A DNA stretch of 64,000 nt from Myxococcota bacterium. Lineage in GTDB: Bacteria > Myxococcota_A > UBA796 > SXON01. Both the position numbers and the translations under genes were made by a program. The stretch spans positions 1 through 64,000 of the forward strand of contig JAZKFH010000011.1 of NCBI GenBank assembly GCA_040386535.1. The letters run 5' to 3'. Shown in pieces: positions 5,709-35,599 of the stretch. Position 1 is the first letter of the stretch. Every line of letters begins with the position of its first letter. Below the pieces are notes generated by a model. It was not told where the DNA came from, searched no databases, and saw only the letters and a list, made by a program, of their open reading frames with translations.

Positions 5709-5819
5709 TCTCCGAGTGCGCTACCGTTCCCCTGCTGGAGGATAGGAGACATCACCCGCTGTAGGCTCCCACCCAGCGGGAGCACGCAGCCGACGGAGGA
5801 GGCGGAGCCCGTGGAGAAG

Positions 5820-5909
5820 CCGGCGCCCCCGTTGAAGCCGGCGCCCATCGCGACGCCGGCGCCCGTCGCGAAGGTGCCGCCCGTCGCGAAGGCGGCGCCC
5901 CCGGTGGAA
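5820..5909. repeat. Degenerate 18-nt tandem repeat, ~5 units (ccggcgcccgtcgcgaag-like)
   Basis: Units read PAPPLK/PAPIAT/PAPVAK/VPPVAK/AAPPVE on the + strand and abut repeat copy 2. Confidence 0.6.
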
Positions 5910-8185: not shown

Positions 8186-8399
8186 TGGGGGCCGGCCGCG
8201 TCACACACGCGGGAGGAGGTGCCAACGGGAGCGACGGGGGCGGGTGTGTTCGGGCCGTAGTCGGTCCACGTCGCGCCCGCCACGAGCACCAGGGCGGAGG
8301 GTGGGGGCGCGACGGGACAACGTGCCGGCGGCCACGCTCGTCGGCGCCGTTCCCTTGGCGTGCTTGCTCGTTCGGAGCCGCCCAGCCATACTAAAGCGC

Positions 8400-11300
8400 A
8401 TGTCGTTCGAGGGCACCCTCCCGACGCTCGTGGAGCTCGTGCGGGCGAGGGCCAGACACGATCCGCATCGGGTGGTGCTCGTCCCGCTCGTCGATGGCGA
8501 GACGGCCGGCGAGCCCCTCACCTACCAGCAGCTCGACCGGTGCGCGAGCGCCGTCGCCGCCGACCTGGCGCAGCGCTGCCCTCCGGGCTCGCGGGCGCTC
8601 CTCGTCCACCGGAACGGCAGCGACTTCATCATCGCGCTGTTCGCCTGCTTCTATGCCGATGTGATCGCCGTTCCCGCCTACCCGCCCCGCGCCCGGCACG
8701 CGCGTGCACGGCTGAACGCAATCATCAAGGACGCTGAGCCCGCGGTCGTCCTCACGGACGTACCGGCAGACGTGGCGGACCTCCCCCTCCGCCCGGTCGG
8801 TCGGAGTCGAGCGAGCCCACCCTCCGATTCCGACGCGCCGGCCTTGCTCCAGTACACCTCCGGCTCCACTGCCCAACCGAAGGGCGTCTGCGTGACACAC
8901 CGGAACCTGGTCCACAACCAGGCGGCCATCGCGCGTGCGTTCGGACACGACGAAGCGTCGAGCATCGTGAGCTGGCTGCCGGTCTACCACGACATGGGGC
9001 TGAGCAACCTGCTGCAGGCCGTGTACGTCGGGATCCCGTGCTTCCTGATGGCGCCGGCCCACTTTCTCCAGCGGCCCGCGCGTTGGCTGGAGGCGATCGC
9101 GCGGCATCGGGCGACCACCAGCGGAGGGCCCGACTTCGCGTACGAGCTGTGTTCGCGGCGGATCACCCCGGAGCAGCGTCGGCGCCTCGATCTGGGATGC
9201 TGGCGCGTCGCTTACGACGGGTCCGAGCCCGTTCGTGCCCAGACCCTGCAACACTTCGTGGAGACCTTCGGCCCCCAGGGGTTCCGCGCGTCCGCGTTTC
9301 GCCCGTGCTACGGCCTCGCCGAGGCCACGTTGTTGGTCGCCGCGGGCGCCCCGGATTGTGTGGCGCGGATCGAGCGCTTCGAAACCCTGGCGCTGACCGA
9401 GCATCGCGCGGTGGTGGCGGCGCCGGGGCTCGGGCAGGCGCTCGTGAGCTGCGGAAGCGCGCGCGAATGTGAGGTGATCATCGCGGACCCCGACGGCGGG
9501 CGGGCGCTGCCGACCGGGCGCGTCGGGGAGATCTGGGTCCAGGGGCCGAGCGTCGCGGCCGGCTACTGGCAGCGGCCCGAAGAGACGGCGACGGCGTTCG
9601 GCGCCCGCGTGCCTGGACACCCAGGAACCTTCTTGCGAACGGGGGACCTCGGCTTCGTGACCGATGGGGAGCTCTACGTCGCCGGGCGCCTCAAGGATCT
9701 GATCGTCGCTCGCGGCCAGAACCACCACCCGGCGGACATCGAGCGCACCGCGCAGGACACGGACCCGTCGTTGCCCGTGGGTGGGGGCGCGGCGTTCGGG
9801 CTCGACGTGGCCGGCGAGGAGCGTGTCGTCGTGGTGCACGAGGTGGGGCGCGCCACCCTCGACGCCACGGCGCTGACCGGCATCATCCGCCGGCGCATCC
9901 TCGAGGAGCACGGGCTCCAGGTGGCCGCGGTGGTGCTCATCCGACCCGGCACCTTGCCCCGGACGACCAGCGGCAAAGTGCGCCGCGCCGCCTGCCGCGA
10001 CCAATTCGTCGCGGGGACGCTCGTGGTCGTTTCGGAGTGGCGCCCGCCCTCCGAGTCCGTGGCGCCCGACAGCCACCCGCCAGCGCCGACGCCCGACGAG
10101 GTCCTGGATTGGTTCGCCACGACACTCGCCGATCGGCTGGGCGTCCCCGCGGAGACGCTGGATGTGGACCAGCCGCTCGGGCGGTACGCCGTCGACTCCC
10201 TCGCCGCGCTGGATCTCGCCCACCGCGTCACGACCCGCTTCGGGGTGGTGCTCCCGATCGCCACGATTTTCGACCAGTCCAGCATCTCGTCGCTCGCCGC
10301 CGCGGTGTGCCTGACGCTAGAAGCCGCGCCCCCTCGGCCCGATCCAGCGCTCGTGGCACCACCGGTCCACGCCGACGGGGTGCTCACGCGCGGCCAGCGC
10401 GCCATCTGGATCCAGGAGCAGCTGGGAGCGGCCCGCACCGCCAACCTCGTCGCCCGCGCGGCCCGCATCCACGGGCCGCTGGATCCGGAGGCCCTTCGGC
10501 GTGCGTTGCGTCGGCTGGTCGCGCGGCACCCGGCGCTCAGGACCACGTTCGAGGTGGGACCGGACGGTCCCGTGTCACGGACCCATCCGCATCTGACGCT
10601 CGATCTGAAGCTGGACTACGACGCGGGCCCCATCGCCGAGCGCCTGCGCGATCTGGCGCGGCGCCCGTTCGATCTGCAGCAAGGCCCGCTCTTGCGTGTG
10701 CACATGCTTCACGACGAATCTGCCGCCGGCCGCGGAAGCTGGGTCCTGCTCCTGGTCGTCCACCACATCGTGGTGGACTTCTGGTCGTTCGAGGTCATCG
10801 TGGCGGATCTCGCGGCGCTGTACGCGTCAGAACACCGGGGCGCCCCCGCGGTGCTGCGGCCGCCGGGCGCCTGCGCGGCCACCCTCCCTCTCTCCGCTGG
10901 CGAGGCCTCGGCGAAGTATTGGGAGGAGCGGCTCGCGGGGGCGCCGCACGCGAGCGCTCCGCCCGCAGACCTGCTCGCGCCGCGCACGCGCACGCACCAC
11001 GCGGAAGCGGTCCCCCTCGTGCTGGACGAGGCGTTGACCCGACAGTTGGACGTGTTCGCGGCGACGGAGCGGGCCACGCCCTACATGATCCTGCTCGCCT
11101 CGTTGGCCGTGGTGCTCCACCACAACAGCGGCGCGGAGGACGTTGTCGTGGGATCTCCCACGGTCGCGCGTTCCGGGGCCGCGCTCGGGGGCGTCGTCGG
11201 CTGCTTCCTCGACGCGGTCGCGATCCGCGGAGATCTCGCCGGCGATCCATCCTTTCGGCGCGTGGTCCAACGGGTCCGGGAGGCGGTGGTGGGCGCGCTC

Positions 11301-13598
11301 GAGCACCGGGCCGATCCCCACGACCACGTCGGGGAGCACGCTCGGCCCGGGCCGTTCGACGTGCTTCTGGTGTGGCTCGGGGCGCACCACGACGTTGGAA
11401 AGGCGCTCGTCCCGTTTGCGCTGCAGGAGGCCGGCGCGTGCCTGGAGCTCGGTGGGCTCCGGCTCGAGGCGCTGCCCGTCCCATCCCCGAGCGCGCTGTT
11501 CGCCCTGGAGCTGGTGGCGGGCCGGGTCGGTCACGAGGTGCACGGCTCGCTCGCCTACGCCACCGAGCTGTACGCCGCGTCGACCGCGACGCGCCTCGTG
11601 GCGCACCTGTCCCGGGTGCTCCGCACCGGCCTCGATTCGCCCGATCGTCCCCTCTCGGAGCTCTCGCCGGTGGACGAGGCGGAGCAGCGTGTGCTGCTCC
11701 ATCTCGGCGGAAATCCAGAGGCGATCGTCCGGCCCGAGGGGTTGTACGACCGCGTCGCCGCCTGGGCTACCGCCACACCCGATGCGATAGCGCTCACGTT
11801 CGACGGCGCCACACTCACCTATGCCGCGCTGCACGACCGGAGCCGCGCGCTCGCCCATCGCCTCCAACGGCTCGGTGTGTTGCCCGGCCGGCCCATCGCG
11901 GTCCTGCTGGAGGACGGGCCCCTGCAGGTGACCGCCCTCTTGGCCGTCCTGGCGGCGGGTGCGTGCTTCGTTTGTGTAGACATCGGCTACCCGGCGCTCC
12001 GGCTCGAGCGGATCCTGGACGACCTGCGGCCCTCGCACGTCCTCACGTCCGCCACGTGGGCGAATCGGCCCGCGCGGGGTGATGAGCGCACCTGGGTGGT
12101 CATCGGGGAGGAGGACGGGGGGGGCCCGGAGGACGGGCCTCTGCGTGGCGGACGGGGCACGGACGCGGCCTATGTGGTGTACACCTCCGGGTCGGGTGGG
12201 TCTCCAAAGGGGATCGTCCAGTCGCATGCCGCCTTCAACCAGTTTCTGGATTGGCAGATCCAACGCTTCCACATGGGGCCGGGGCAACGGATCGCCCAGT
12301 GGGCAACACTCACCTACGATGCGGCCTACTGCGAGATCTTCGGCGGCCTCTGCTCCGGAGCGACCGTCTGCCTGGCCGTCCCCGCGATGCGCCAGGATCC
12401 GTCGGCGCTCCTCGCGTGGGTCGAGCGCGAGGCGATCACCCTGCTCCAGATGGTGCCGAGCTTCTGGCGTGTCGTGTGGGCGCAGCTCGCCGACCTGCCA
12501 CCCGGCGCGCGGGACCCGCTGCGGAGCCTCGAGTGGCTGCTCCTCGCCGGTGAGGCGCTCCCGGTCGATCTGGCCCGCTCCTGGCTGGCTCGGTATCCGG
12601 CGCACCCCGCCCTCTTCAACCTGTACGGGCCCTCGGAGACAGTGTTGGCGACCTGCTACCCGGTCGAGGCGGTCGGGGAGGCGACCCGCTCGATTCCCAT
12701 CGGCCGCCCGATCGACGGTCGACGGATTTTGCTCCTCACGCCCCACGGCCGCCCCTGCCCGAGAGGGGCGATCGGCGAGATCTACGTGCAGAGCCGCCAC
12801 CTCACAATTGGCTACCACGGGCGGCCGGAGGAGACCGCACGGGCGTGGTTGCCCGCGCCCGGCGCCAGATCCGAGGACGATCGGATGTACCGCACGGGTG
12901 ACCTCGCGCGGTGGACCCCGCAGGGCGAGCTCGAGTTCCACGGACGAATCGACGGCCAGCTGAAGATGCGCGGCGTTCGGGTGGAGCTCGAGGAGGTCGC
13001 CGCCGTGCTCCGCGCCTGCCCCCTGGTGGAGGACGCCGTCGTCGTCGCCGACGAGGATGGCGGCGGGGATCCGCGCATCCTCGCCTACGTGGCGGGGCCA
13101 GCGGCGATCGACCTCGCAGCGTTGCGCGAGGCGGCGCGGCGGATGCTGCCCCCACAGGCCGTTCCGACCGCCTTCGTGCGCCTGGACGCCCTCCCGCGGA
13201 CCCGCACCGGCAAGATCGACCGTCGCGCCCTGCCGCCGCCCGCTCCCGCCGAGCGCTCCGGCCCTGCGGCCTCCTCGGCGCCGTGGACCGACCGGGAGAA
13301 GCTCGTCGCGGCGGTGTGGCAGGAGGTGCTCGGGGTCCAGGCCGTGGGCGTGGACGACCGCTTCATGGACCTCGGCGGGCACTCGCTGAGCGCGATGCAG
13401 GTGGTCGGTCGGCTGCGGCGCCGCGGCTGGGAGCTCCCGCTCGCCAGCGTGTTCGAAGCGCCCAGCGTGGCGGGCATGGCCGCGCGGATCCAGGCAGTCG
13501 AGGGGAGCGTGCCCGACCTCGCACAGATGGTGGACGACATCGAGGCGCTCTCGGACGACGAGGTCGAAGCGCTCCTTTCCGACCCGGAGGGTACATGA
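8400..13598 (+). CDS. NRPS loading protein FAAL-ACP-C-A-T
   Basis: FAAL (LQYTSGSTAQPKGV, SWLPVYHDMGL, CYGLAEATL), ACP (VDSL), C (HHIVVDFWS), A (YTSGSGGSPKG, YGPSET, YRTGDL), T (GGHSL). Start placed at ATG 8400. Confidence 0.95.
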   Translation: MSFEGTLPTLVELVRARARHDPHRVVLVPLVDGETAGEPLTYQQLDRCASAVAADLAQRCPPGSRALLVHRNGSDFIIALFACFYADVIAVPAYPPRARHARARLNAIIKDAEPAVVLTDVPADVADLPLRPVGRSRASPPSDSDAPALLQYTSGSTAQPKGVCVTHRNLVHNQAAIARAFGHDEASSIVSWLPVYHDMGLSNLLQAVYVGIPCFLMAPAHFLQRPARWLEAIARHRATTSGGPDFAYELCSRRITPEQRRRLDLGCWRVAYDGSEPVRAQTLQHFVETFGPQGFRASAFRPCYGLAEATLLVAAGAPDCVARIERFETLALTEHRAVVAAPGLGQALVSCGSARECEVIIADPDGGRALPTGRVGEIWVQGPSVAAGYWQRPEETATAFGARVPGHPGTFLRTGDLGFVTDGELYVAGRLKDLIVARGQNHHPADIERTAQDTDPSLPVGGGAAFGLDVAGEERVVVVHEVGRATLDATALTGIIRRRILEEHGLQVAAVVLIRPGTLPRTTSGKVRRAACRDQFVAGTLVVVSEWRPPSESVAPDSHPPAPTPDEVLDWFATTLADRLGVPAETLDVDQPLGRYAVDSLAALDLAHRVTTRFGVVLPIATIFDQSSISSLAAAVCLTLEAAPPRPDPALVAPPVHADGVLTRGQRAIWIQEQLGAARTANLVARAARIHGPLDPEALRRALRRLVARHPALRTTFEVGPDGPVSRTHPHLTLDLKLDYDAGPIAERLRDLARRPFDLQQGPLLRVHMLHDESAAGRGSWVLLLVVHHIVVDFWSFEVIVADLAALYASEHRGAPAVLRPPGACAATLPLSAGEASAKYWEERLAGAPHASAPPADLLAPRTRTHHAEAVPLVLDEALTRQLDVFAATERATPYMILLASLAVVLHHNSGAEDVVVGSPTVARSGAALGGVVGCFLDAVAIRGDLAGDPSFRRVVQRVREAVVGALEHRADPHDHVGEHARPGPFDVLLVWLGAHHDVGKALVPFALQEAGACLELGGLRLEALPVPSPSALFALELVAGRVGHEVHGSLAYATELYAASTATRLVAHLSRVLRTGLDSPDRPLSELSPVDEAEQRVLLHLGGNPEAIVRPEGLYDRVAAWATATPDAIALTFDGATLTYAALHDRSRALAHRLQRLGVLPGRPIAVLLEDGPLQVTALLAVLAAGACFVCVDIGYPALRLERILDDLRPSHVLTSATWANRPARGDERTWVVIGEEDGGGPEDGPLRGGRGTDAAYVVYTSGSGGSPKGIVQSHAAFNQFLDWQIQRFHMGPGQRIAQWATLTYDAAYCEIFGGLCSGATVCLAVPAMRQDPSALLAWVEREAITLLQMVPSFWRVVWAQLADLPPGARDPLRSLEWLLLAGEALPVDLARSWLARYPAHPALFNLYGPSETVLATCYPVEAVGEATRSIPIGRPIDGRRILLLTPHGRPCPRGAIGEIYVQSRHLTIGYHGRPEETARAWLPAPGARSEDDRMYRTGDLARWTPQGELEFHGRIDGQLKMRGVRVELEEVAAVLRACPLVEDAVVVADEDGGGDPRILAYVAGPAAIDLAALREAARRMLPPQAVPTAFVRLDALPRTRTGKIDRRALPPPAPAERSGPAASSAPWTDREKLVAAVWQEVLGVQAVGVDDRFMDLGGHSLSAMQVVGRLRRRGWELPLASVFEAPSVAGMAARIQAVEGSVPDLAQMVDDIEALSDDEVEALLSDPEGT

Positions 13599-15118
13599 CA
13601 GATTCGGGGGGCACCCACCTCCTTTCGTCCGCCCGTTACACCCTGCACGATCTGCGCAGATTGGTGGACGAGCGGCCCCGCCTCGGCCTCGCGCCCGACG
13701 TTCGCGCGCAGATCGAGGCGGGCGCGCGGTACGTACAGGCGAGGGCGACAGAGGATCGTTACATCTATGGCGTGAACACGGGCTACGGTGCCTTGTGTGA
13801 AACCCGAATCGGCGTGGAGCACCTCGAAGAGCTCCAGCGCCGGCACGTCCTCTCCCACGCGTGTGGTGTCGGGCCCATCGTCCCGGAGCGGATCTCCCGG
13901 CTCGTGATGCTCGTCAAGCTGCTGACCTTCCGCACCGGCCACACGGGGATCTCCGTCGAGACCGTCGACCGGCTGCTGGCACATTGGAACGAGGGCCTCA
14001 TCCCGACCATCCCCAAGCGAGGAACCGTCGGGGCGAGTGGCGATCTGGCCCCCCTCGCGCACATGTCGCTGCCGCTCCTCGGCCTGGGCCAGGTGTACAT
14101 GGACGGTCGCGTCGTCCCGGCGTCGGAGGCCCTCGCGCGGACGGGCTGGGCGCCGCTGCGCCTGCGCGCGAAGGAGGGGCTCGCGCTCACCAACGGCGTC
14201 CAATACATCAACGCGCTGGCGGCGAGCGCCCTGATGGAGATCGGTGACCTCGTGCGGTGCGCCGACGTCATCGCCTCCCTGAGCGTGCAGGGATTCAGCG
14301 CGGCGCGGTTGTTCTACCATCCGAGGTACCACGAGACCTCGTTTCACGAGGACAGGAGGATCGTCGCGGCAAACCTCGGGTCGCTGCTGGACGGGAGCAA
14401 TCACTCCGAGCTGCCCACGTGCAACCGGTCGACACAGGACCCCTATTCGTTCCGATGCATCCCCCAGGTGCACGGCGCCATCCGGCAGACGTTGCGCTTC
14501 ACCTGGCAGGTGATGGAGGACGAATGCAACGGCGTGTCGGACAATCCCCTGTTCTTCCCCGAGGAAGACCTGATCCTGACCGGGGGCAACCTCCACGGGG
14601 AATCCACCGCCTTCAGCACGGATTTCCTCGCGATCGCCGTCAGTGAGCTGGCCAACATCTCCGAGCGGCGCACGTGGCAGCTGCTCTCCGGCCAACGGGG
14701 CTTGCCGAGCTTCCTGGTGGCCAACCCGGGCCTCGACTCCGGGCTCATGGTCGTGCAGTACACCTCCGCTGCACTGGTGAACGAGTGCAAGGTCCTGTCC
14801 ACGCCCGCGAGCGTCGACACGATCCCGACCTGCCAGACCCAGGAGGACAGCGTCAGCATGGGTGGCACCTCCGCGTACAAGCTCGGTCAGATCGTCGAGA
14901 ACTGCGGGACGGTCCTCGCCATCGAGCTGCTCGTCGCCGCGCAGGCGTGTGACCTGAACGGCGGGTTGCGGCTCTCTCCCACGACCCGAGCCATCGTGGA
15001 CGGCCTGCGCCAGCGGGTGCCCTTCCTCTCCGAGGACCGGCTGCTCGCGGACGACATCGAGGCGACCCGCACGTTCTTCGCCGAGCACGCCCGGGCGTGG
15101 TCGACGCTCGTGGCCTGA
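13595..15118 (+). CDS. MIO-dependent aromatic amino acid ammonia-lyase/2,3-aminomutase (HAL-like)
   Basis: YGVNTGYG, GTVGASGDLAPL (ASG forms MIO), QDPYSFRCIPQVHG, DNPL, GGNLHG; ATGA overlap with the NRPS stop. Confidence 0.95.
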   Translation: MTDSGGTHLLSSARYTLHDLRRLVDERPRLGLAPDVRAQIEAGARYVQARATEDRYIYGVNTGYGALCETRIGVEHLEELQRRHVLSHACGVGPIVPERISRLVMLVKLLTFRTGHTGISVETVDRLLAHWNEGLIPTIPKRGTVGASGDLAPLAHMSLPLLGLGQVYMDGRVVPASEALARTGWAPLRLRAKEGLALTNGVQYINALAASALMEIGDLVRCADVIASLSVQGFSAARLFYHPRYHETSFHEDRRIVAANLGSLLDGSNHSELPTCNRSTQDPYSFRCIPQVHGAIRQTLRFTWQVMEDECNGVSDNPLFFPEEDLILTGGNLHGESTAFSTDFLAIAVSELANISERRTWQLLSGQRGLPSFLVANPGLDSGLMVVQYTSAALVNECKVLSTPASVDTIPTCQTQEDSVSMGGTSAYKLGQIVENCGTVLAIELLVAAQACDLNGGLRLSPTTRAIVDGLRQRVPFLSEDRLLADDIEATRTFFAEHARAWSTLVA

Positions 15119-15151: not shown

Positions 15152-16666
15152 ATGAGCATGGACGACGATGGCGGGCTCGCGGCGAAGCTCGCCCGGCTGC
15201 CCCTGGCGCGGCGGATCCTCCTCGCCCGGCGGCTCGCGGCGGCCGGGGTCGATCCGGAGACGCTCCCGATCCTCCCCGTCGCGCGGCGTGTGGGCGGGGA
15301 GTTCGAGCTCTCGCCGACACAGCAGGGGTTGTGGCTGGCCGAGCGTCTCCATCCGCGGACGGCGGCGCTCAACGTGGCCGTCGCCGCGCGTATCGAGGGG
15401 GCGCTCGACGTGGCGGCGCTGGCGGAGAGCTTCCAACGGCTGGCACGTCGCCACGAGTCCCTCCGCGTCGAGCTCTCCGAGCGGGACGGCCGGCTGTCCG
15501 CCCGTGTGTCCCCCGAGCCCAACACCCACCTCGCCTTCGTCGATCTGACCGTCCTTCCGCCGGCGCTGGGTGAGGAGGATGCGGCGCGACGCTGGCGTGC
15601 GGAGGCCCTGCGCCCCTTCGACCTCAACCACGGGCCGCTGTGGCGCGCCACCCTCCTCCGCCTCGACGCGGGCACCCACGTCATCGTCCTCGTGCTGCAT
15701 CACCTCATCGCCGACAATTGGTCGATGGGGATCGTGGGGCGGGAGCTGGGGAGCTACTACGAGGCGCTCACCACCGGGATCCCGGCGGTGCTCCCCGAGC
15801 TCCCGATCCAGTGTGTCGACCACGCCGCCTGGCAGCGGCGCCGGCTGGCCGAGGGTCGGCTCGACGCGCAGCTCGCGTATTGGAAACGACAGATCCCGGT
15901 GTCGCCAGCGCCCTTGTTTCCGACCGACCACCCTCGTCCGGCGGTCAAGAGCTACCAGGGAGCGCGGGTGCCCCTCGCGTTCCCCTCCTCCCTCGCCGAG
16001 GCGCTCCTCGGCTGGTGCACCCGGGAAGGGGCCACCCTCTCCATGGCCCTGGTGGCGGGCCTGGCAGCGCTGCTGCATCGGTACACGGGCGCGGATCGGG
16101 TCGTGATCGGAACGGACGTCGCCGGGCGGGAGCGCCCCGAGTTGGAAGGCCAGGTGGGGTTCCTCGTCAACCAGGTGGTGCTCCGCCTGGAGACGGGCGG
16201 CAATCCGGTGCCGGCGGAGCTCCTGCGGCGGGTGCGGGGCACGTGCCTGGACGCCTACACGAACCAGGAGGCGCCGTTCCACAAGGTGGTGGAGGTCGTG
16301 AAGCCGCCGCGGTGGCTCGACCGGACGCCGCTGTTCCAGGTCAAGCTGGATCTGTTGACGATCTCCCTGGCGGCGGTGAGCCTGCCCGGGCTCCACGTGA
16401 CCCCCCTGGCGACGGACGGCACCGCGAAGTTCGATCTCGAGTTCGTGCTGTGGCGCAGCGCGGGGGAGCTACACGGCTTCTGCGAGTACAGCACCGACCT
16501 GTTCGAGGCCGTCACCGTCGGCCGCCTGCTTTGCCATTACGAAGGCATCCTCCACCAGATGACGGCCCACCCGGAAGGCCGGATCCTCGACATCCCGCTC
16601 GCGGGCGCAAACGGGTCCGCCGAGCCGCGCTTCGCGGGCAACGAAGAGTTCTGCTTCGATCCGTGA
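15152..16666 (+). CDS. Stand-alone NRPS condensation domain protein
   Basis: LSPTQQGLW, RHESLR, HHLIADNWS, GFLVNQVVLR, AKFDL; no A or T domain. Confidence 0.92.
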   Translation: MSMDDDGGLAAKLARLPLARRILLARRLAAAGVDPETLPILPVARRVGGEFELSPTQQGLWLAERLHPRTAALNVAVAARIEGALDVAALAESFQRLARRHESLRVELSERDGRLSARVSPEPNTHLAFVDLTVLPPALGEEDAARRWRAEALRPFDLNHGPLWRATLLRLDAGTHVIVLVLHHLIADNWSMGIVGRELGSYYEALTTGIPAVLPELPIQCVDHAAWQRRRLAEGRLDAQLAYWKRQIPVSPAPLFPTDHPRPAVKSYQGARVPLAFPSSLAEALLGWCTREGATLSMALVAGLAALLHRYTGADRVVIGTDVAGRERPELEGQVGFLVNQVVLRLETGGNPVPAELLRRVRGTCLDAYTNQEAPFHKVVEVVKPPRWLDRTPLFQVKLDLLTISLAAVSLPGLHVTPLATDGTAKFDLEFVLWRSAGELHGFCEYSTDLFEAVTVGRLLCHYEGILHQMTAHPEGRILDIPLAGANGSAEPRFAGNEEFCFDP

Positions 16667-16681: not shown

Positions 16682-18145
16682 GTGGGCGAGCGGGGACACA
16701 CACGCTATACACACTCGAGAACCGAGCCGGGCGCCATCGTGAGTCGCGATCCCATTCCCTGCCACGCCCTCCTCCGTGATCCACGGTCGGAACGTATTCT
16801 TCTCCGTGAAGAAGCCGCGGGTCTGGCGTTGCCGCAGGTCTCGGTCGCCGCGCCCTGGTTCGAGCTGGAGGCGCTCAACGCCGCCTACCACGCGTTGCTT
16901 GGTACCCGGACGACCGTGCTGCGGTGTGTAGAGGGGGATGTAAATACGCGGGAGTCCGCGTTCCGGGTGTACGCGCTCGAGATGCACGACGAGGCTTGGG
17001 AGGCGCGCCCCCCATGGCGCTGGGTCGAGCGCGCCGAGCTCGATGCGGTGGTCCTCGTCGCGCCCGAACAGCGGGCCTGGATCGCCCGGGGGTTCGACGA
17101 TCCCGCGCAGCCACGCCTCGACTCCGCCGGCGTGTCGGCGCTCTGGCCGCCGTGGGCGTGGCCCGGTTGGTTCGCGCGGGCGGAGTCCTTCGTCGCAGCC
17201 GAGCTCGCGCGCTGCGGCCTCGCCGCCACGGCGCCCATCATCCAGGTTCGCGCCTGGCAGCGCTCCTGCGTGCTGCGCGCCGACACCGCGAGCGGTGGCG
17301 CCTTCTTCAAGGCTTCGCCCCGGATGTTCCCGCACGAGGCGGCGGTGGCTGGGCTCCTGGCGGCCCGGTACCCTGACTTCTTCCCGGAAGTGCTCGCGAT
17401 CGACCGCACCGAGGGTTGGATGGTGATGCGCGCCCTGGAGGGCCACACCCTCTCCGAGATCCCCGATCTCGGCCGCTGGGAGGAGGCCGCGCGGTGCCTG
17501 GCACGGTTCCAGTTCGATTGCGCGGCGCACGTCGCCGAGCTGGCCCGCTGCGGCTGTCCCCGGTGGCCGCTCGATCGCATCGCCGATCGTCTGGGGCCCT
17601 TGCTCGCCGACACGGATGCGATGCTGATCGGGACGCCGGAGGGCCTGACGGAGGAAGAGGCACGGGAGCTGCGGGCCCGGCTCCCCGCGCTCCGCAACGC
17701 CTGTGCGCAGCTCGCGGGCGTGCCGGTGCCCGAGTCCTTCGAGCACGGGGATCTCCGCGGCGCGCACATCATCGCGAACGGGGGCGGATACCGGATGTTC
17801 GACCTTTCGGACGGAGCGATCGCGCACCCGTTCTACAGCGCGGTGAGCCTGCTCGACTACGACCGGATCCCGGCGGCCGGAGGCTCGCACGAGGCCGCGC
17901 GGATCCGGCTGCGCGACGCCTACCTCTCCGTGTGGGCGCCCCTCGCGCCGATGGAACGCCTCGTCTCCGCCTTCGAGCAGGCCCGCGTGGTCGCCATCCT
18001 GTACGCGGCGCTCCTCCGGTACGACGTGATCCTGCCCGCGATCCAACCGCGGGAGAACTGGTCGTTCATGATCCCCTATTGGCTGCGCAAGCTCCTCGTT
18101 GCGCTCCGGGAGCGTCCCGACACCGTTGGCTCCCCGTGGCCCTGA
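16682..18145 (+). CDS. Aminoglycoside phosphotransferase (APH)/choline kinase-like protein; start may be GTG 16739
   Basis: FFKA lysine, HEA, HGDLRGAHI (Brenner-like motif), FDLSD, HPF. Confidence 0.85.
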   Translation: MGERGHTRYTHSRTEPGAIVSRDPIPCHALLRDPRSERILLREEAAGLALPQVSVAAPWFELEALNAAYHALLGTRTTVLRCVEGDVNTRESAFRVYALEMHDEAWEARPPWRWVERAELDAVVLVAPEQRAWIARGFDDPAQPRLDSAGVSALWPPWAWPGWFARAESFVAAELARCGLAATAPIIQVRAWQRSCVLRADTASGGAFFKASPRMFPHEAAVAGLLAARYPDFFPEVLAIDRTEGWMVMRALEGHTLSEIPDLGRWEEAARCLARFQFDCAAHVAELARCGCPRWPLDRIADRLGPLLADTDAMLIGTPEGLTEEEARELRARLPALRNACAQLAGVPVPESFEHGDLRGAHIIANGGGYRMFDLSDGAIAHPFYSAVSLLDYDRIPAAGGSHEAARIRLRDAYLSVWAPLAPMERLVSAFEQARVVAILYAALLRYDVILPAIQPRENWSFMIPYWLRKLLVALRERPDTVGSPWP

Positions 18146-19008
18146 CACCCTCCCAGGAGGCGCTCCTCCCCTCCGAGGACGATGTCACGTTCTACGAGCA
18201 GCATGGCTATTACACGTCGGCGCGGATCTACGCGGACGACGAGCTGGACGACGCTGTGTACGGCAGCGAGCGGTACTACGCGGGCGAGCGGGACACCGTG
18301 TTCCCCTTGCGGGGTGGCTACCTCGATTGGCGGCCGGAGGACGGCGAGGGGCTGCGCCAGAACGACTACGTGTCCCTCCAGAACGACGAGATCCGGCGGT
18401 TGGTGGAACACCCGCTCCTGGGCGCGATCGCGGCCCGGCTGTGCCGAGAGACCGAGTCCGTCCGCCTGTTCCACGACCAGCTCGTCTACAAGCCCCCCGG
18501 CGAGCTCGAGGGGACAACCATCGTCGGGTGGCATACCGACCGCGCCTATTGGCGGACGTGTACGTCGGATCGGATGCTCACCGCGTGGATTCCGTTCCAC
18601 GCGGTCGACGCTCGTTCGGGGACCCTCACCGTGATCGACGGCAGCCACCGTTGGGAGGGCGCGGAGCGTCTCCACACCTTTCGCGACAAGGATCTCGCGG
18701 GCCTCGCGTCCCGGATGTTCCCCGCGGGTGCGGGCGTGCGGGAGGTGCCGATGACGCTCGCGCGGGGCGCGGTGAGCTTCCATCATTGCCGGCTGATCCA
18801 CGGCAGCTACCCGAACCGCGGCGTTCGCCCGCGCGTCGCGCTGGCGGTCCACATGCAGGACGCCGCCAATCGTTACATTGCTCACTATGATGCCGCGGGA
18901 AATCCAATCCTGCACATCAACGACACGTTGTGCCGGAAGCGCGCGGACGGCGATCCGGACTATGCCGACAACAACATCTGCCCGGTGGTCTGGGCGAGGG
19001 GAGCCTGA
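18136..19008 (+). CDS. Fe(II)/2-oxoglutarate dioxygenase, PhyH family
   Basis: FYEQHGY, YKPP, WHTD (HxD), TAWIP, GSHRW, HGSYPN..R; the GTG start overlaps the kinase 3' end. Confidence 0.92.
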   Translation: MALTPSQEALLPSEDDVTFYEQHGYYTSARIYADDELDDAVYGSERYYAGERDTVFPLRGGYLDWRPEDGEGLRQNDYVSLQNDEIRRLVEHPLLGAIAARLCRETESVRLFHDQLVYKPPGELEGTTIVGWHTDRAYWRTCTSDRMLTAWIPFHAVDARSGTLTVIDGSHRWEGAERLHTFRDKDLAGLASRMFPAGAGVREVPMTLARGAVSFHHCRLIHGSYPNRGVRPRVALAVHMQDAANRYIAHYDAAGNPILHINDTLCRKRADGDPDYADNNICPVVWARGA

Positions 19009-19032: not shown

Positions 19033-22000
19033 ATGGACAAGACGGATCCGACGTTGATCTTCGACGCCCGCCTGAAGGCGGAGCAGGCGTACTGGTTGGG
19101 GCGCCTCCGCCGGGAGCTCGAGGAGACCAACCTCCCCCTGGACTTCAAGCGCTCGAAGATCTACGCACCCAAGCAGGAGTCGCTGCCGTTCGAGATCTCC
19201 GAGGACACGCAGCGGCGCCTGGAGCGTCTCACCGGGGGCTCGCCGCTCCTGACCTACACCGCGCTGCTCGCGGCGCTCCTGGTCGCGCTCCGTCGGTACA
19301 CCGGCAATCACACCGTGGTCGTGGGCAGCCCACCCGCGCGGGTGGACGGGCAGGCCGACCGGGCGAACGTGCTCCCGATCGTGGCGGACCTCGACGACAG
19401 CACCTCGTTCCGCGAGCTGCTCCCCCGGCTTCGTGACACACTGTCCGCGGTGTACGCGCACCAGAACTATCCATTCGGTCGTCTGCTGGAAGACCTCGGG
19501 ATCGTGGCCCCGCCCAGCCGCTGCCCACTTTTTGACGTGGTCGCGTCATCCGCGGCGCTCCACGGTCCCCTGCCGCCCCTGAAGAACGACATCTCCTTCG
19601 TCTTCGTCGGCGCGCCCGGGGCCCTGGCGCTGCAGATCGTGTTCAACGCCCGGGTGCTCCACGCCGACACGGTGGCGGCCTTCGGCCGCAGCGTGTTGTG
19701 CCTCCTCGACGAGATGCTCCGGCGCCCCGCCGATCCGCTGGGCGCGCTCCCGGCGCTCTCCGGCGATCAGGCGCGGGTCCTGGTCGAGGGGTGGAACGGC
19801 ACCCCTGGCGAGACCCGCGATCCCCGGCCGCTCGGCGGCGTCCCGGGGCTGTTCGAGGCCCAGGTCGATCGCACGCCCGATGCCCTGGCCGCGGAACAGG
19901 ACGGGCGCTTCCTCACCTACCGCGTACTGGAGCAGCGCGCGAACCAGCTCGCGCACCACCTTCGTGCCGCCGGTGCGGGGCCCGACGTCCCGATCGGGAT
20001 CGCGATCGCCCCGTCCCTGGACCTCCTCGTGGGCGTGCTCGGGATCCTCAAGGCCGGTGCGGCCTACGTCCCGCTCGACCTCGCCCTGCCGGCGGACCGC
20101 CGCCGGATCGTCGCCGAGGAAGCGGGGGTTCGCATCGTCCTCGTCGCTGGCGAAGGCCCCTCGCCGCTCCCGCCGGGCGTCGCGCGGCTGATCGATCTCG
20201 ACGCCGACCGCGAGGTCATCGCGGCTACCCCCGCCACCCGTATTGCGAGCCCCGATCCGGAGGATCTCGCCTACATCCTGTTCACCTCGGGATCGACGGG
20301 CCGCCCCAAGGGGGTGTGTATGCCACACCGGGCCCTCACCAACCTGCTGGATTGGCAGATCCGGCAATCCACGTGTTCGGAGGGGTCGCGTACGTTGCTG
20401 CGCACCTCCCTCGGTTTTGATGTCAGCTTCCAGGAGATCTTCGCCACCTGGTGCGCCGGGGGCACGCTCGTCGTGGCGTCCGAGGCGATCCGGAGCGACC
20501 CGTGGGGGCTGCCGGCGTTCCTGGAGGCGAAGCAGATCAACCGGGTGTTCCTTCCGTTCATCGGCTTGCAGCAGCTGGCGAAGGGGATGTGCGCCCAGCA
20601 GCGGTTCCCCACGACGCTGCGCGAGGTGATCACCGCGGGCGAGCCGCTGCGCATCACGAGCGCGATCCTCGAGGTGTTCCGACAGCTGGAGGGCTGCTCG
20701 CTGGTGAACCAATATGGTCCCACCGAGACACACGTCGTGACCGCGAATGTACTTGATGGCCCCGCGATCCGTTGGCCGACGCTGCCGTCCATCGGGCGCC
20801 CCATCGCGAACACCCAGGTGTACGTGTTGGATGCGTGGCTGCAGCCGGTGCCCATGGGCGCCGTCGGGGAGCTGTGTGTCGGGGGCGTGGCGGTGGCCCG
20901 GGGGTACGCCGGGCGGCCGGAGCTCACCGAGCGCGCCTTCCCGGTCAATCCCTTCGTTCCGGGGCCAACGGCAGCCGCGGCCCGGCTCTACCGGACCGGG
21001 GATCTCGCGCGTCATCGCCGGAACGGCGAGATCGAGCTCCTCGGGCGTGCCGATCGCCAGGTGAAGATCCGCGGTCACCGGGTGGAGCTGGGCGAGGTCG
21101 AGGCGGCGCTGTGCGTGCATCCCGAGGTCGGCGAGGCGGTGGCGATGGGGACCACCGGTGACGACGGAGACACGCGTCTGGTGGCCTGGGTGGTGCCAGA
21201 GCACGGCCACAGGCCGTCGAGCGCGGCGCTCCGGGCGTACCTCGCCGAGAGGCTCCCCCCCGCGATGATCCCCGCGGCGTTCGTGCGGGTGGACACGCTC
21301 CCGTTGACCTCGACCGGCAAGATCGATCGTGCGGCCCTGCCCGCCCCGGACTGGGCACACCCGGAGATCGAGGATCCGTTCGTCGCGCCCCGGACGCCGG
21401 TCGAGCAGCTCCTCGCCGAGGTCTGGCGGGCGGTCCTGGGGGTCGAGCGCGTGGGGATCGCGGAGAATTTCCTGGAGCTCGGCGGAGACTCGATCCTCGC
21501 GACCCAGGTGGTGGCCCGGGCCCGCGCGGAGGGCGTCGGGATCAGCCTGCGGGACATCTTCCAGCACCAGACGGTCGCGGCGCTGGCCCTGGTCGCAAGC
21601 ACGGCCCGGACCCGTGACGTGACGGCCAGCGGGCCGGCGCCCCTCAGCGCGATCCAACGTTGGTTGCTGGATCGGGAGCTTCCGAACCCGAGCCACTGGA
21701 ACATGAGCGTGTTGTTGCAGACCCGGTTCGCGCACGCGCCCGGGCTCCTCGCGGGCGCCATGCGCGCGGTCGTCGCCCACCACGACGCGCTTCGCCTCCA
21801 GCTCGTCCAGGACGGCGCCGGTTGGCGCCAGGCGGCGGGGCTCTCGGCGCACCAGGCGCTCGCGGTGGTCCACCATGACCTGTCGGCCCTCCCGGCCCAC
21901 GAGCAACCGGGCGTGGTCACGGAGCTCGCCGCCGCCGCACAACGCATGCTCGATCTCCACACCGGGCCGATGGTCGTGATGGCTACGTTCGATCTCGGGG

Positions 22001-23028
22001 CGGAGAGGCCGGGCCGGGTGCTGTTCGCCGCCCACCACCTCGTGATGGACGGGGTGTCGCTCCGGTTCCTCCTGGCCGACGTGGAGACGGCCGCGCGACA
22101 GCTGGCGGGCGGCGAACCGGTGGCGCTGCCGCCGCCGACCGCCCCGTTCCTCCACTGGGCTCGGCTCACCAACGAGCTCGCGCAGTCCCCCCGCCTGCAC
22201 GCGGAGCTCGAGTATTGGGAGCGACGCCCGGCGACCCCTCCCGCGCGCCTCCCGCTGGACCGTCCAGACGGCCCGAACACCGAGGAATCCACACGCACCG
22301 TCGAGCGGTCCCTGGGCGCCGCCGAGACCCGCGCCGTGTTGCACGGCACCCCCGAGGGCATCCGGGACGTCGTCCTCGGCGCGCTGGTGGTCGCCCTGTC
22401 ACGCTTCACCGGATCCCGCGCCGTGCTCGTCGACGTCGAGGGGCACGGCCGCGAAGAGCTGGCCGAGGCGGGAGAGTTCGCGCGCACGGTGGGCTGGTTC
22501 ACGTCGCTCTTTCCGGTCTGCTTCGACATCGGGGACGCCCCCGCGCCGGGCGAGGTGTTGCGCGCCGTTCACGCACGACTCCGCGCGGTTCCCGGCAACG
22601 GCGTCGGCTACGGGCTCCTGCGCCACCTCGCCGGTCCGCAGATCGCGGCACGCCTCGCGGCGTTGCCCGCCGCCGAGGTCAGCTTCAACTATCTCGGGCA
22701 ATTCGACGCGCTGCTCGCCGAGAGCGCGCTGTTCGCCCTGGCTCCGGAGTCCCCCGGCCCGCAGGTCGATCCCCGTGGAGCGCGGACCCACGCGCTCTAC
22801 GTGGAGGGGCGGATCGTGCACGGCCAGCTGCTCCTCTCGTTCCGCTACAGCGCAGCGCTGCACGACGCCGCGACGATGGAGCAGGTGGCGGACCACTGCA
22901 TGGCCGCGCTCGGGGCCATGCGCGCCGATCCGGTCCCCGCGGCGCGCGCGCACACCGCGCGAGTGAGCGCCGCGGATCTGCAGGCCGTCCTCGCGGCGGT
23001 GAGGACCGAGGACCCGAGTGAGCGCTGA
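19033..23028 (+). CDS. NRPS: partial C (interface-like)-A(Pro-like)-T-E
   Basis: N-terminal half C domain lacking HHxxxDG; A code read by eye DVQFIAQVVK; T with GGDSI; E motifs HHLVMDGVS, EGHGRE, RTVGWFT, FNYLGQFD. Confidence 0.95.
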   Translation: MDKTDPTLIFDARLKAEQAYWLGRLRRELEETNLPLDFKRSKIYAPKQESLPFEISEDTQRRLERLTGGSPLLTYTALLAALLVALRRYTGNHTVVVGSPPARVDGQADRANVLPIVADLDDSTSFRELLPRLRDTLSAVYAHQNYPFGRLLEDLGIVAPPSRCPLFDVVASSAALHGPLPPLKNDISFVFVGAPGALALQIVFNARVLHADTVAAFGRSVLCLLDEMLRRPADPLGALPALSGDQARVLVEGWNGTPGETRDPRPLGGVPGLFEAQVDRTPDALAAEQDGRFLTYRVLEQRANQLAHHLRAAGAGPDVPIGIAIAPSLDLLVGVLGILKAGAAYVPLDLALPADRRRIVAEEAGVRIVLVAGEGPSPLPPGVARLIDLDADREVIAATPATRIASPDPEDLAYILFTSGSTGRPKGVCMPHRALTNLLDWQIRQSTCSEGSRTLLRTSLGFDVSFQEIFATWCAGGTLVVASEAIRSDPWGLPAFLEAKQINRVFLPFIGLQQLAKGMCAQQRFPTTLREVITAGEPLRITSAILEVFRQLEGCSLVNQYGPTETHVVTANVLDGPAIRWPTLPSIGRPIANTQVYVLDAWLQPVPMGAVGELCVGGVAVARGYAGRPELTERAFPVNPFVPGPTAAAARLYRTGDLARHRRNGEIELLGRADRQVKIRGHRVELGEVEAALCVHPEVGEAVAMGTTGDDGDTRLVAWVVPEHGHRPSSAALRAYLAERLPPAMIPAAFVRVDTLPLTSTGKIDRAALPAPDWAHPEIEDPFVAPRTPVEQLLAEVWRAVLGVERVGIAENFLELGGDSILATQVVARARAEGVGISLRDIFQHQTVAALALVASTARTRDVTASGPAPLSAIQRWLLDRELPNPSHWNMSVLLQTRFAHAPGLLAGAMRAVVAHHDALRLQLVQDGAGWRQAAGLSAHQALAVVHHDLSALPAHEQPGVVTELAAAAQRMLDLHTGPMVVMATFDLGAERPGRVLFAAHHLVMDGVSLRFLLADVETAARQLAGGEPVALPPPTAPFLHWARLTNELAQSPRLHAELEYWERRPATPPARLPLDRPDGPNTEESTRTVERSLGAAETRAVLHGTPEGIRDVVLGALVVALSRFTGSRAVLVDVEGHGREELAEAGEFARTVGWFTSLFPVCFDIGDAPAPGEVLRAVHARLRAVPGNGVGYGLLRHLAGPQIAARLAALPAAEVSFNYLGQFDALLAESALFALAPESPGPQVDPRGARTHALYVEGRIVHGQLLLSFRYSAALHDAATMEQVADHCMAALGAMRADPVPAARAHTARVSAADLQAVLAAVRTEDPSER

Positions 23029-26000
23029 GAACATCGAGGATCTCCGGGAGCTGTCGGCGATCCAACACGGCACGCTGTTCCACAGCGTGTGGGGGCGGGA
23101 GGTGTATGTCGAGCAGATGGTCTGCACGCTGCGCGGGCCCTTGGATGTGCCGGCCTTCGAGCGGGCCTGGCAGGGGGTGGTCGACGCCCACGACGTGCTC
23201 CGCACCTCGTTCGTCTGGCAGGGCGTGGAGCGCCCGCTCCAGGTGGTGCAACGCCGGGTTGCCCTCGTGCTGGAGCAGCGCGACTGGACCCCCTCCCCAC
23301 CGGGGACTCAAGCCGCGTTGTTGTCCGCCTGGCTCGAAACGGATCGCGCGCGGGGCTTCGATCTCGCCCGGGCCCCGCTCCTGCGCCTCGCCCTGCTGCG
23401 CACCGGCGCCGACGTCCACCACCTCGTCTGGACGCACCACCACATCCTGCTCGATGGGTGGTCGGTCGGGCTCGTGCTGGAGGAGGTGCTCGCGCGGTAC
23501 GAAGGGGAGCGCGGCGGCCCCCCGGCCGAGCTGCGGCGCGGCGTGCCGTTCTCGGCCTACCTCGATTGGATGGAGAGGCGCGGGTCGGGGCCTGCCGAGG
23601 CCTGGTGGCGCCGCACCCTGGCCGGCGCCGGCGAAGCGATCCCGCTCGGAGGGGACGCGGGTTGCCGACCGTTCGGGAGCGGGCCCGTCTCCGAGCAGCG
23701 CCTCACGCTCACCCCGGACGAGACCGCGGCTCTCCACGCCGCCGCGCGCCGACACCGGGTGACACTCGGGACCCTCGCGCACGGCGCCTGGGCGATGCTC
23801 CTGGCGCGGTACAGCGGGGAGGACGAGTGTGTCTTCGGCACGGTCACGTCCACCCGGCCGCCAGACCTGCCGGGCTCGGCCTCGGTGGTCGGGCCGTGCT
23901 TCAACACGCTCCCGGTCCGGATTGCCATGCCCCCGGGGTTGCCGGTGGGGAGTTGGCTCCAGGGGCTGCAGACGGCGCTCGTCGAGCTCCGGCAGCACGA
24001 CCACGTCGCGCTCGCGGACATCCACGCGTGGAGCGGGATTCCCCGCGGCGCCCGGCTGTTCGAGAGCCTCCTGGCCTTCGAGAACTACCCGCTGGCCACC
24101 ACCCTCGGGGGAACGGGATCCAGCCTCGCGTTCACCGATGTCCGCTGGATTGGGAGCACCAACTACCCGCTCGCGGCGATGGTCGTGCCGCGGGCCGAGA
24201 CCACGTTGTGCATCCAACACGACGTGTCCCGGTACTCCGCCGAGACCGCGCGCGCGATGTTGGGCCACTACCGTGCGCTCCTCCTCGGAATGACCCAGCC
24301 GGGCAACATTCCCCTGCGCGCGCTGACGCCTCTCTCCGCCGAGGAGCGGGAGCTTCTCCTGGTGGGCTGGAACCCCACCCGCACGGAGGCTCCGGCGGTG
24401 GGATCGCTGCACCGCCTCTTCGCCGCGCAGGTGGCAAGGACCCCAGCGGCCGTGGCCGTCACCCACTGCGGCGCCGCGCTCTCCTACGGAGAGCTCGACC
24501 GACGTGCCAACCGACTGGCATGGCGGCTCCGCGCCCGCGGGGTGGGGCCGGAGGTCCGCGTCGGCCTGCTCGTGGCGCGCGGCCTCGACCTGCTCGTGGG
24601 CGTATTGGCCATCGCGGAGGCGGGAGGCGCCTTCGTGCCGCTCGATCCGGACCATCCGCCCGAGCGCGTCGGGTGGATCGTTCGGGATGCCCAGCTGGCC
24701 CTCGTCGTGACACAAGAGAATCTGTCCGGACGGCTGCCACCCGAGGTGGATCGAATCGGGTTCGACCCGGACGACACTGCCTCGCCGGGCCCCCTCCCGA
24801 GTGGGGTCGGGCCCGATCACCTGGCGTACGTCCTGTACACCTCGGGCTCGACCGGGGTTCCGAAGGGGGTGATGATCCCCCATCGGGGCCTGGTGAACTA
24901 CCTGGCCTGGGCGGCGCGGGCGTACGCGGTCGCCGAGGGCGTCGGGGCGCCGGTCCACACCTCCGTCGCGTTCGACCTCACGTTCACCGCGCTGCTGGTA
25001 CCGCTGTGCGCGGGACGACGGGTCGATCTGCTCGTCGAGGAGCGTGGCGTGGGCGCCCTCGCCGCGGTTCTGCGGGCGCCCTCCGACTACAGCCTCGTCA
25101 AGCTCACCCCGAGCCACGTCGAGGTCCTCGCGGGCCACGCACTGACGCCACCTTCCGCGCCGGCAACGCGCGCCTTTGTCGTGGGTGGGGAGAGCCTGCG
25201 CCCGGAGCACGTCCGCGCGTTGCGCGCCGCCGCGCCCGGCGCCGTCGTGTACAACGAATACGGACCGACCGAAGCCGTGGTGGGCTGCAGTGTGCACACG
25301 GTGACCGACCTCGTGGACGAGGGGGGCCCGCTGCCGATCGGGCGCCCGATCGACAACACCCGCCTCTACATCCTCGATCGCGACTTTGCCCCCGTGCCCG
25401 TCGGGGTGATCGGGGAGCTGTTCATCGGGGGAGCCGGCCTGGCGCGGGGCTACCTCGGGCAGCCCGGACGCACGGCGGAACGGTTCGTTCCGGATCCGTT
25501 CGGGGACCAGACCGGCGCACGCCTCTACCGGACCGGGGACCGCGCGCGCCGTCGCGTCGACGGGGACATCGAGTTCATCGGCCGCGTGGACGAGCAGGTC
25601 AAGGTGCGCGGCCATCGCGTCGAGCCCGCCGAGATCGAGGCCGCGCTGACACGCCACCCGGCGGTCGCCCAGGCGGTGGTCGTCACGCGCTCCCGGCTCG
25701 AGGGGGCGCATGAGCTGGTGGCCTGTTGGGTGGCGGCAGGGCCGGACGCGCCCGGCCCAGGAGAGCTCCGGAAGTACCTCCTCGACACGCTCCCCGAGCC
25801 GATGGTCCCCGCGCGGTTCGTGCGCGTGGAGCACCTTCCGCTCACGCCGAACGGCAAGGTCGATCGCGCCGCGCTCGCGGCGGCCGGCGGGGAGGAAGTG
25901 GCCGCCGCGAGCGCCCCCTTCGTCGCCCCGCGGGGCCCGACCGAGGAGAGCCTCGCCCGGATCTGGGCCGAGGTGCTGGGGGTCGAGCGGATCGGCCGTG

Positions 26001-35329: not shown

Positions 35330-35392
35330 GAAGGCATGCTCATGACCCTGTGCCGACAGGCATGATAATCGAGCGAGACGACGGGAGACTCG

Positions 35393-35599
35393 ATGCCGGA
35401 CGCGACCTACGCCGTGGTCATCAACCACGAGGAGCAGTACTCGGTCTGGGCCGCCGACCGGGAGCCTCCCCCCGGATGGCGCGTCGTCGGCGTGACGGGG
35501 ACGAAGGACGAGTGTCTCGCCCACATCGAACGGGTGTGGACCGACATGCGGCCGGCGAGCCTTCGCGGGGCGGCGTCGGGGTTCAATTCGGCGGAGTGA
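35393..35599 (+). CDS. mbtH: MbtH-like protein
   Basis: [33 protein letters not shown] signature. Confidence 0.97.

Follow-up and report, generated by a model that had tools for sequence, protein, structure and literature searches.

A histidine ammonia-lyase-type MIO enzyme clade and its dedicated adenylation-domain lineage in nonribosomal peptide clusters: a candidate histidine 2,3-aminomutase

Why should a gene resembling that of histidine ammonia-lyase (HAL) overlap the end of the gene for a nonribosomal peptide synthetase (NRPS), and what might its product supply to the assembly line? This question is raised by a Myxococcota bacterium (assembly GCA_040386535.1; genome G+C 72%) in which the first 64 kb of a 140-kb contig (JAZKFH010000011.1), the stretch of DNA referred to here as the window, carry a nonribosomal peptide cluster on the + strand, as delineated with Pfam, NCBIfam and hidden Markov models (HMMs) made from the window's own domains. 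An initial annotation had proposed that the HAL-like enzyme, a member of the 4-methylideneimidazol-5-one (MIO) family, is an aminomutase of non-Tyr/Phe type feeding a beta-amino-acid-type adenylation domain, perhaps with beta-histidine. We find a discrete clade of HAL-type enzymes that is associated with NRPS genes and co-inherited with one lineage of adenylation domains, and for which histidine 2,3-aminomutase activity is our leading, though far from secure, interpretation. The two partners are encoded as follows.

8400..13598, + strand: NRPS1, with domain order fatty-acyl-AMP ligase (FAAL), acyl carrier protein (ACP), condensation (C), adenylation (A1) and thiolation (T), from Pfam
near 10185-10211, + strand: serine of the ACP of NRPS1
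10761-10781, + strand: HHIVVDF motif in the C domain of NRPS1
about 11715-13301, + strand: A1 adenylation domain, with pocket code DACQLALLAK, A4 motif TYDAAYCE (12312-12335) and loop YGPSETVLAT (12624-12653)
13281-13502, + strand: T domain of NRPS1
13595..15118, + strand: HAL-like MIO enzyme, 507 aa (PF00221, 545 bits)

The ATG of the MIO gene (13595) overlaps the TGA of NRPS1 (13596-13598) as ATGA, ACATGACAG, with GGAGG 7 nt upstream; judging from this overlap, the MIO gene is translationally coupled to NRPS1.

A HAL-type clade and its genomic context

The active site of the MIO enzyme is that of a HAL in nearly every respect. Seven of the eight residues of the HAL catalytic and binding set are kept (equivalents of PpHAL Tyr53, His83, Asn195, Gln277, Tyr280, Arg283 and Glu414), within the motifs YGVNTGYG (Tyr58), VLSHACGVG (Ser87-His88; 13847-13873, as first read), NGVQYIN (Asn200), QDPYSFRC (Gln281, Tyr284, Arg287) and QEDSVSM (Glu417), and the MIO-forming Ala-Ser-Gly triad occupies residues 147-149 of GASGDL (146-151). 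The exception is PpHAL Phe329, replaced by Leu333 in GGNLHGES, a change seen across most of the clade described below. Enzymes of the phenylalanine and tyrosine ammonia-lyase (PAL and TAL) types carry Phe-Leu or His-Leu at the selectivity pair and Gln at the Glu414 position. For Geobacillus HAL (GkHAL), a published study reports that mutation of the Tyr53, His83, Asn195 and Glu414 equivalents led to loss of activity, and gives roles for seven of the eight residues, the Tyr280-equivalent mutant being not expressible (PMC11432326).

The enzyme exceeds the cut-off of the HAL subfamily model NF006871 (561.7 against 524) and falls only 7 bits below that of the hutH equivalog TIGR01225 (531.8 against 539.15). 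It lies far below the cut-offs of TIGR03832 for tyrosine aminomutase (TAM; 348.6 against 501) and of two models for phenylalanine aminomutase (PAM; TIGR04475, 327 against 800; TIGR04473, 157.7 against 1250), models that cover Tyr/Phe enzymes only, and the TAL and PAL models are likewise far from being reached. PpHAL is the closest solved structure at 346 bits, with SgcC4 at about 270 and AdmH at 222 (range for the two, 222-271). The initial view of the enzyme as HAL-type rather than Tyr/Phe-type, which rested on the Ser-His pair, is strongly supported.

This HAL-type enzyme belongs to a discrete group. Among 50%-identity representatives, the clade consists of one full-length protein at 684 bits, after which come two fragments and then a match at 438 bits (45% identity). 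When a clade HMM built from 14 sequences was used to score the available loci, the window, a genomic locus termed L007 and 16 metagenome loci scored 541-974, the three lowest being cut or truncated genes, whereas 67 other HAL-like open reading frames (66 loci) scored 488 or less. In a maximum-likelihood tree of 95 rows, constructed without characterised TAM or PAM sequences, the clade forms one side of a branch with SH-aLRT support of 100%, and the window enzyme is sister to a sequence labelled P0006. All 16 full-length members have the Ala-Ser-Gly triad, and neither the Ser-His pair nor the Glu414 equivalent varies within the clade. Changes near the active site that are specific to the clade comprise Phe329Leu, NGVQYIN in place of the NGTQ of ordinary HALs, Cys-Glu following the Tyr loop, and PTCQ(L/T)QED in place of the PTSANQED of ordinary HALs. 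HutH (EC 4.3.1.3; PpHAL, PDB 1B8F/1GKM) is like the window enzyme in its fold, its triad and the residues named above, but is unlike it in these motifs, and hut-operon HALs are only about 40-45% identical to it.

The distribution of the clade is broad. Database relatives share 63-73% identity with the window enzyme, and clade members make up more than 120 clusters at 90% identity; every named one among the 120 listed is annotated as histidine ammonia-lyase. The named relatives belong to Myxococcota, Chloroflexota, Acidobacteriota and Actinomycetota, and include Chromobacterium vaccinii (a 65%-identical homologue); Lentzea fradiae, Stigmatella sp. and Polyangium sp. are, like C. vaccinii, culturable carriers. 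An enzyme of the window type was found in none of the 32 other genomes of the family, 30 of which match the MIO enzyme at 37-41% identity (23 with two HAL-like matches, adjacent in the rows shown, and seven with one), and in none of 400 other genomes sampled from the phylum. A single-protein search of species genomes recovered L007 only. A plasmid collection contained no clade member, its top matches being hutH at 45% identity or less, and gave nothing useful with A1 as the query. TIGR03832 exceeded its cut-off in 0 of 401 genomes of the phylum.

We annotated the loci of these genes with Pfam and with the HMMs made from the window's own domains, limiting the window to its first 40 kb for the counts of context. 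Loci are labelled W (the window) or Lnnn, and genomes G000 (that of the window) or Gnnn. NRPS A, C or T domains are present at 17 of the 18 clade loci and at none of 65 other HAL loci, whereas hutU or hutI is found at none of the 18 and at 21 of the 65 (20 of 64 without L022, which was fetched as the second HAL of genome G421). The sole clade locus without NRPS domains, L034, is a 1.7-kb contig lacking flanks. A further member from an Acidobacteriota genome, G545, one of two matches among 401 genomes of that phylum, has the order T, MIO gene, C-A-T-C and raises the NRPS-flanked clade loci to 18 of 19. Genome G421 has, in addition to the copy embedded among NRPS genes, an ordinary hutH in an operon with hutI, a GntR-type regulator (hutC) and hutU, and this HutH is 44% identical to the window enzyme.

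The genome of the window itself has three PF00221 genes. Its only match to PF01175 (urocanase, HutU) is on another contig (C24) and not in the window, for which the initial annotation had noted no other hut genes. The other two HAL-like genes stand in tandem on contig C33 (29651-32481; L005:7469-10698, - strand), with no hut genes among the neighbours tested. The first has Ser-Ser-Gly together with SHAAGVG; the second has GHCAGVG and, in place of the MIO-forming Ala-Ser-Gly, Ala-Ala-Gly, and should therefore not form MIO.

Taken together, clade membership and genomic context strongly support the placement of the MIO enzyme as a HAL-type protein acting outside histidine catabolism. Most likely, the clade has spread horizontally and serves NRPSs.

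The coupled adenylation-domain lineage

We then considered which adenylation domain the MIO enzyme accompanies. Pocket positions were placed by core motifs using GrsA numbering; the identities of GrsA D235, A236, A301, I330 and C331 agree with a review (PMC11253843). The code of A1 is D-A-C-Q-L-A-L-L-A-K, as it had been read at the outset. At every readable locus the A domain nearest to the MIO gene has an unusual code, distributed as follows.

DACQLALLAK: W, L026 and L038; also L029, with nine positions readable
DACQMALLAK: L046
DAAQLALLAK: L118
DVCQMV(I/V)AAK: L030 and L032
DAPH(L/F)ALLVK: L031 and L033
DGLHMVLLTK: L007
DARSLSQMVK: L036, where the MIO gene is truncated

Domains with the same code as A1, or a one-letter variant of it, are only 34-47% identical to it overall (L118 being outside this comparison), and the six best matches of A1 are all MIO-adjacent domains. 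In a tree of 40 A domains of at least 430 residues (five shorter fragments were dropped), 10 of the 11 MIO-adjacent domains fall into one group, with a local support of 84 for this lineage and of 96 for the branch setting off the remaining NRPS-type A domains; none of 500 label shuffles clustered the MIO-adjacent domains as tightly. No other A domain in the window's genome or in 32 sister genomes reaches an E-value of 1e-80 against A1. Wherever the position is readable, the MIO-adjacent A domains, A1 among them, retain Asp235 and Lys517. Within the clade, MIO sub-clades accompany three different types of A-domain code.

The co-occurrence of clade and A lineage in 10 of 11 readable loci, across several phyla, upholds the initial pairing of the MIO enzyme with the module-1 A domain, and a functional coupling of the two is strongly supported by these sequence comparisons. 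Because the pocket stays constant on a drifting scaffold, and because the two partners are inherited jointly, the A domain is most simply read as activating what the enzyme makes.

Three of the loci have features of their own. In L036 the MIO gene is truncated to 354 codons (7638-8699), and the A domain beside it is, of all the MIO-adjacent ones, the only one outside the dedicated lineage. A further type of A domain, with code VAWLTSLSNK and without Asp235, occurs in L038 (15265-16848), L046 (14972-16549) and L036 (12831-14384), and in the first two directly follows the MIO-coupled starter module; its substrate may be one without an amino group.

The argument by which A1 had been assigned to beta-amino acids has fared less well. 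The loop YGPSETVLAT lies where it had been placed, and is indeed one residue shorter than in A3 and A4 of the same cluster, but not shorter than in A2, which has the same spacing by both MAFFT and hmmalign. Against the two A domains of LgrA, HMMER opens a gap of one residue immediately behind YGPSE, and it aligns A1 with 8xjz without a gap; the A1 spacing also occurs in Thr-, Gln- and Pro-type domains of related loci. According to section 2.3 of the review cited above, VinN-type enzymes are marked by a loop shorter by one residue together with bulkier residues at positions 236 and 301 (PMC11253843); that part of the text gives VinN Phe231 and Ser299 against GrsA Ala236 and Ala301, and Val236 in a TycA engineered for beta-Phe.

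A1 has Ala at both positions; in the type-2 relatives, residue 236 is Val. Among solved structures, A1 is closest to ordinary NRPS A domains (LgrA, 469 bits), with VinN-type chains at 146-162 bits. Thus, while A1 retains the Asp235 of VinN-type enzymes (VinN, IdnL1, CmiS6 and HitB), it is unlike them in being an in-line NRPS domain that is closest to alpha-amino-acid domains, has Ala at 236 and 301, and shares its loop spacing with the Pro-type A2. One likeness to the engineered TycA is that the T-V-L after YGPxE in A1 is a hydrophobic tripeptide resembling X-L-V (PMC11253843, in the same section). The short loop is therefore not established as a mark of beta-amino-acid activation here, given that A2 has equal spacing, that residues 236 and 301 are Ala, and that the best relatives are LgrA-like.

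Aminomutase, lyase or another activity

We propose, with a probability of roughly 0.5, that the enzyme is a histidine 2,3-aminomutase that would provide beta-histidine to the coupled A domain. What suggests aminomutase activity is the position of that domain behind C domains and its Asp235. The coupled domain comes after a C domain of its own protein in W, L026, L029 (in a module with an inserted methyltransferase domain) and L118, and in L007 the C domain before it closes the upstream protein, the MIO gene standing in between; the HHxxxD motif of this C domain is intact in W, L026 and L007, the three loci in which it is readable. In the window, the C domain comes after FAAL-ACP, the usual layout for N-acylation of the first amino acid. 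Because the coupled domain stands behind a C domain in five loci and always keeps Asp235, its substrate should carry an amine, and a histidine 2,3-aminomutase is therefore favoured over a urocanate-forming lyase. A beta-amino acid is indicated because urocanate would be unfit for positions after a C domain and because a dedicated MIO enzyme would be superfluous for a proteinogenic substrate, and beta-histidine is indicated because the HAL pocket is retained. Both histidine as the substrate and mutase over lyase chemistry are what we infer from the observed gene structure, clade, NRPS association and co-inheritance.

The proposed reaction would begin with L-histidine bound by the retained HAL pocket, after which the amine would be moved onto MIO and returned to C3. 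A1 would adenylate the resulting beta-histidine, for loading on the T domain of the same module.

Known MIO aminomutases, namely SgcC4 (C-1027), CmdF (chondramide), MxvJ (myxovalargin), AdmH (andrimid) and HabB (habitasporin), resemble the present system in that they have the same fold and that their genes adjoin an NRPS with a dedicated A domain. They are unlike it in that they act on Tyr or Phe, with selectivity pairs of the His-Leu or Phe-Leu type, whereas the window clade is HAL-type. For HabB (PMC9802438) and MxvJ (PMC9853869), the published reports describe an MIO enzyme beside the NRPS that is essential for the beta-amino-acid residue.

Several points weigh against a histidine 2,3-aminomutase. 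In L038 and L046 the line begins with the coupled A domain, and in L032 this domain is part of a stand-alone A-T, while L030 is open at the contig end; at such starter positions (L038, L046, L032 and possibly L030) an amine-free acid, for example urocanate, would also fit. With C, Q, L, A, L, L and A, the pocket of A1 is hydrophobic; it has no acidic residue to hold an imidazole and lacks the bulky VinN-type residues noted above. The enzyme passes a HAL subfamily model, just misses the hutH equivalog and stays far below the TAM and PAM cut-offs. Lyase activity is the default chemistry of the HAL fold, and we know of no sequence signature that separates MIO mutases from lyases. Finally, most of the contexts are short metagenome contigs.

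One alternative is that a true histidine ammonia-lyase has been recruited to secondary metabolism, and that the coupled A domain activates its product, urocanate, as an acyl building block. The retention of every HAL catalytic residue but Phe329, the NF006871 score and the starter positions in L038, L046 and L032 would all suit such a role, and an ammonia-lyase with a ligase is a familiar route to aryl-acrylate starters, as in flexirubin and enterocin. This explanation does not sit well with the five loci in which the A lineage stands behind a C domain and would need a nucleophile that urocanate does not have, nor with the conservation of the amino-group-binding Asp235 in every member of the lineage. 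An acid-loading FAAL, moreover, stands beside the MIO gene only in the window, and there it best matches fatty-acyl-AMP ligase models. We therefore consider a urocanate-supplying lyase unlikely.

Similarly improbable, in our judgement, is an MIO aminomutase or lyase for another substrate, for instance modified histidine or some other aromatic amino acid, in which the HAL-like residues would be ancestral baggage. The hydrophobic A1 pocket, the clade-specific changes near the active site and the occurrence of three A-code types with MIO sub-clades could all reflect such a change of substrate, whereas the invariance of the Ser-His pair and of the Glu414 equivalent, and the distance from the TAM, PAM, TAL and PAL cut-offs, argue for histidine. 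A chance placement of an ordinary hutH paralogue beside an NRPS would match the annotation of the named relatives as histidine ammonia-lyase, but is very hard to reconcile with the NRPS context of 18 of 19 clade loci against 0 of 65, the overlap with the NRPS1 stop codon, the presence of hut genes elsewhere in the genome and the co-inheritance with a single A-domain lineage.

For the histidine 2,3-aminomutase, a wider proposition follows that we hold more tentatively: that the first such enzyme and a beta-His-specific A domain form a mobile two-part cassette used in many NRPS pathways of several phyla, and that its hosts include lipopeptides, siderophore-like clusters with TonB receptors, and peptide amides. 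Of these phyla, Acidobacteriota rests on the present tests, while Myxococcota, Chloroflexota and Actinomycetota, and likewise a betaproteobacterium, come from the annotation of database entries. The three types of A-domain code, which go with MIO sub-clades, may stand for different stereo- or regio-isomers. Among the loci themselves, L046 encodes a TonB receptor, FecR and an ECF sigma factor and L032 a Lys/Orn N-monooxygenase, and both therefore look like siderophore clusters. In L028 (3325-8658), the gene after the MIO gene encodes C-A-T-thioesterase (TE) with a Gly-type code and a luciferase-like monooxygenase inserted in the A domain, a module that we take to resemble the MtaG-type modules that form terminal amides.

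The gene cluster, its predicted product and significance

Downstream of the MIO gene, the cluster continues with the following genes.

15152..16666, + strand: stand-alone condensation domain (PF00668, 267.8 bits)
16682..18145, + strand: APH-family phosphotransferase-like protein, 487 aa (a lead from the ESM Atlas only)
18150..19008, + strand, start codon not fixed: PhyH-type Fe/2-oxoglutarate dioxygenase (PF05721, 73.5 bits)
19033..23028, + strand: NRPS2, with a degenerate C remnant, A2 (DVQFIAQVVK), T and a C/epimerization (E)-type domain (TIGR01720 match)
23018..32551, + strand: NRPS3, with C-A3 (DLTKVGEVGK)-T-C-A4 (DVWHFSLVDK)-T-C-T-C
32758..34545, + strand: CocE/NonD (S15) family hydrolase
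34454..35524, - strand: Cupin_8/JmjC-type oxygenase (Pfam)

The stand-alone C domain is probably the C domain of module 2; in nine loci the gene after the MIO gene begins with a C domain. The codes of A2, A3 and A4 look Pro-like, Asn/Asp-like and Ser-like, respectively, and the TIGR01720 match would connect the last domain of NRPS2 with E domains. The end of NRPS3 (29441-32551, + strand) reads C-T-C, that is, a last module without an A domain followed by a terminal C domain and no TE, and the CocE/NonD hydrolase follows this TE-less synthetase; as an arrangement for loading and release this is unusual.

The N-terminal 654 aa of NRPS1 find their best matches in FAAL models, with scores below the cut-offs of these models. 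A FAAL domain adjoins the MIO gene in the window only; in G421 a FAAL-type domain opens the cluster about 26 kb upstream of the MIO gene. Loading of urocanate by the FAAL domain was considered and rejected, given its best match to fatty-acyl-AMP ligases and its position outside the conserved cassette.

The protein encoded at 16682-18145 has no Pfam or NCBIfam match; its ESM Atlas feature score is 0.99 and its structure has a TM-score of 0.88 to APH (PF01636) clusters. Its role may be that of a kinase in self-resistance or in phosphorylation of the product.

If beta-histidine is loaded as proposed, the starter C domain would N-acylate it with a fatty acid from FAAL-ACP, and the Pro-, Asn/Asp- and Ser-type modules would extend the chain. 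The predicted product would be a fatty acyl-X1-Pro-type-Asn/Asp-type-Ser-type peptide, where X1 is the MIO-derived residue and the Pro-type residue is possibly epimerised, as the TIGR01720 match would allow. The A-less C-T module would receive one further unit in trans, and release would rely on either the terminal C domain or the CocE/NonD hydrolase. Candidates for tailoring or resistance functions are the two oxygenases, PhyH and JmjC, and the APH-like kinase.

Outside the cluster, the window encodes an eCIS-core-domain protein (2-982, - strand), an AAA ATPase (37920-40283), a 2512-aa protein with an annexin repeat (40377-47915) and a 2187-aa DUF6519/beta-helix protein (57410-63973, - strand). 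Positions 2001-6000 have a lower G+C of 64% and contain three open reading frames without a family match.

To our knowledge, only Phe and Tyr have been described as substrates of MIO aminomutases. According to a 2022 review of the MIO family, no histidine aminomutase is evident from genomes (PMC9002059). Our literature search, which covered papers accessible without subscription, retrieved no account of such an enzyme, none of a natural product with beta-histidine and none of these pocket codes. NRPS lines fed by MIO enzymes are already known; what appears to be new here is a HAL-type clade with a dedicated A lineage, whose function is predicted.

Here we have identified a concrete, conserved and widespread candidate for a histidine aminomutase together with its cognate adenylation domain. 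Should the enzyme prove to be a lyase instead, an NRPS-dedicated supply of urocanate with its own A-domain lineage would itself be undescribed. If the enzyme is a histidine 2,3-aminomutase, beta-histidine, a metal-binding beta-amino acid, would join the list of NRPS building blocks, the pocket codes would provide a specificity code for genome mining, and the label 'histidine ammonia-lyase' would be corrected for the clade's named relatives among the 120 listed. The enzyme would also offer a biocatalyst for beta-heteroaryl amino acids. Finally, such an activity would point to an unseen class of natural products that contain beta-histidine.

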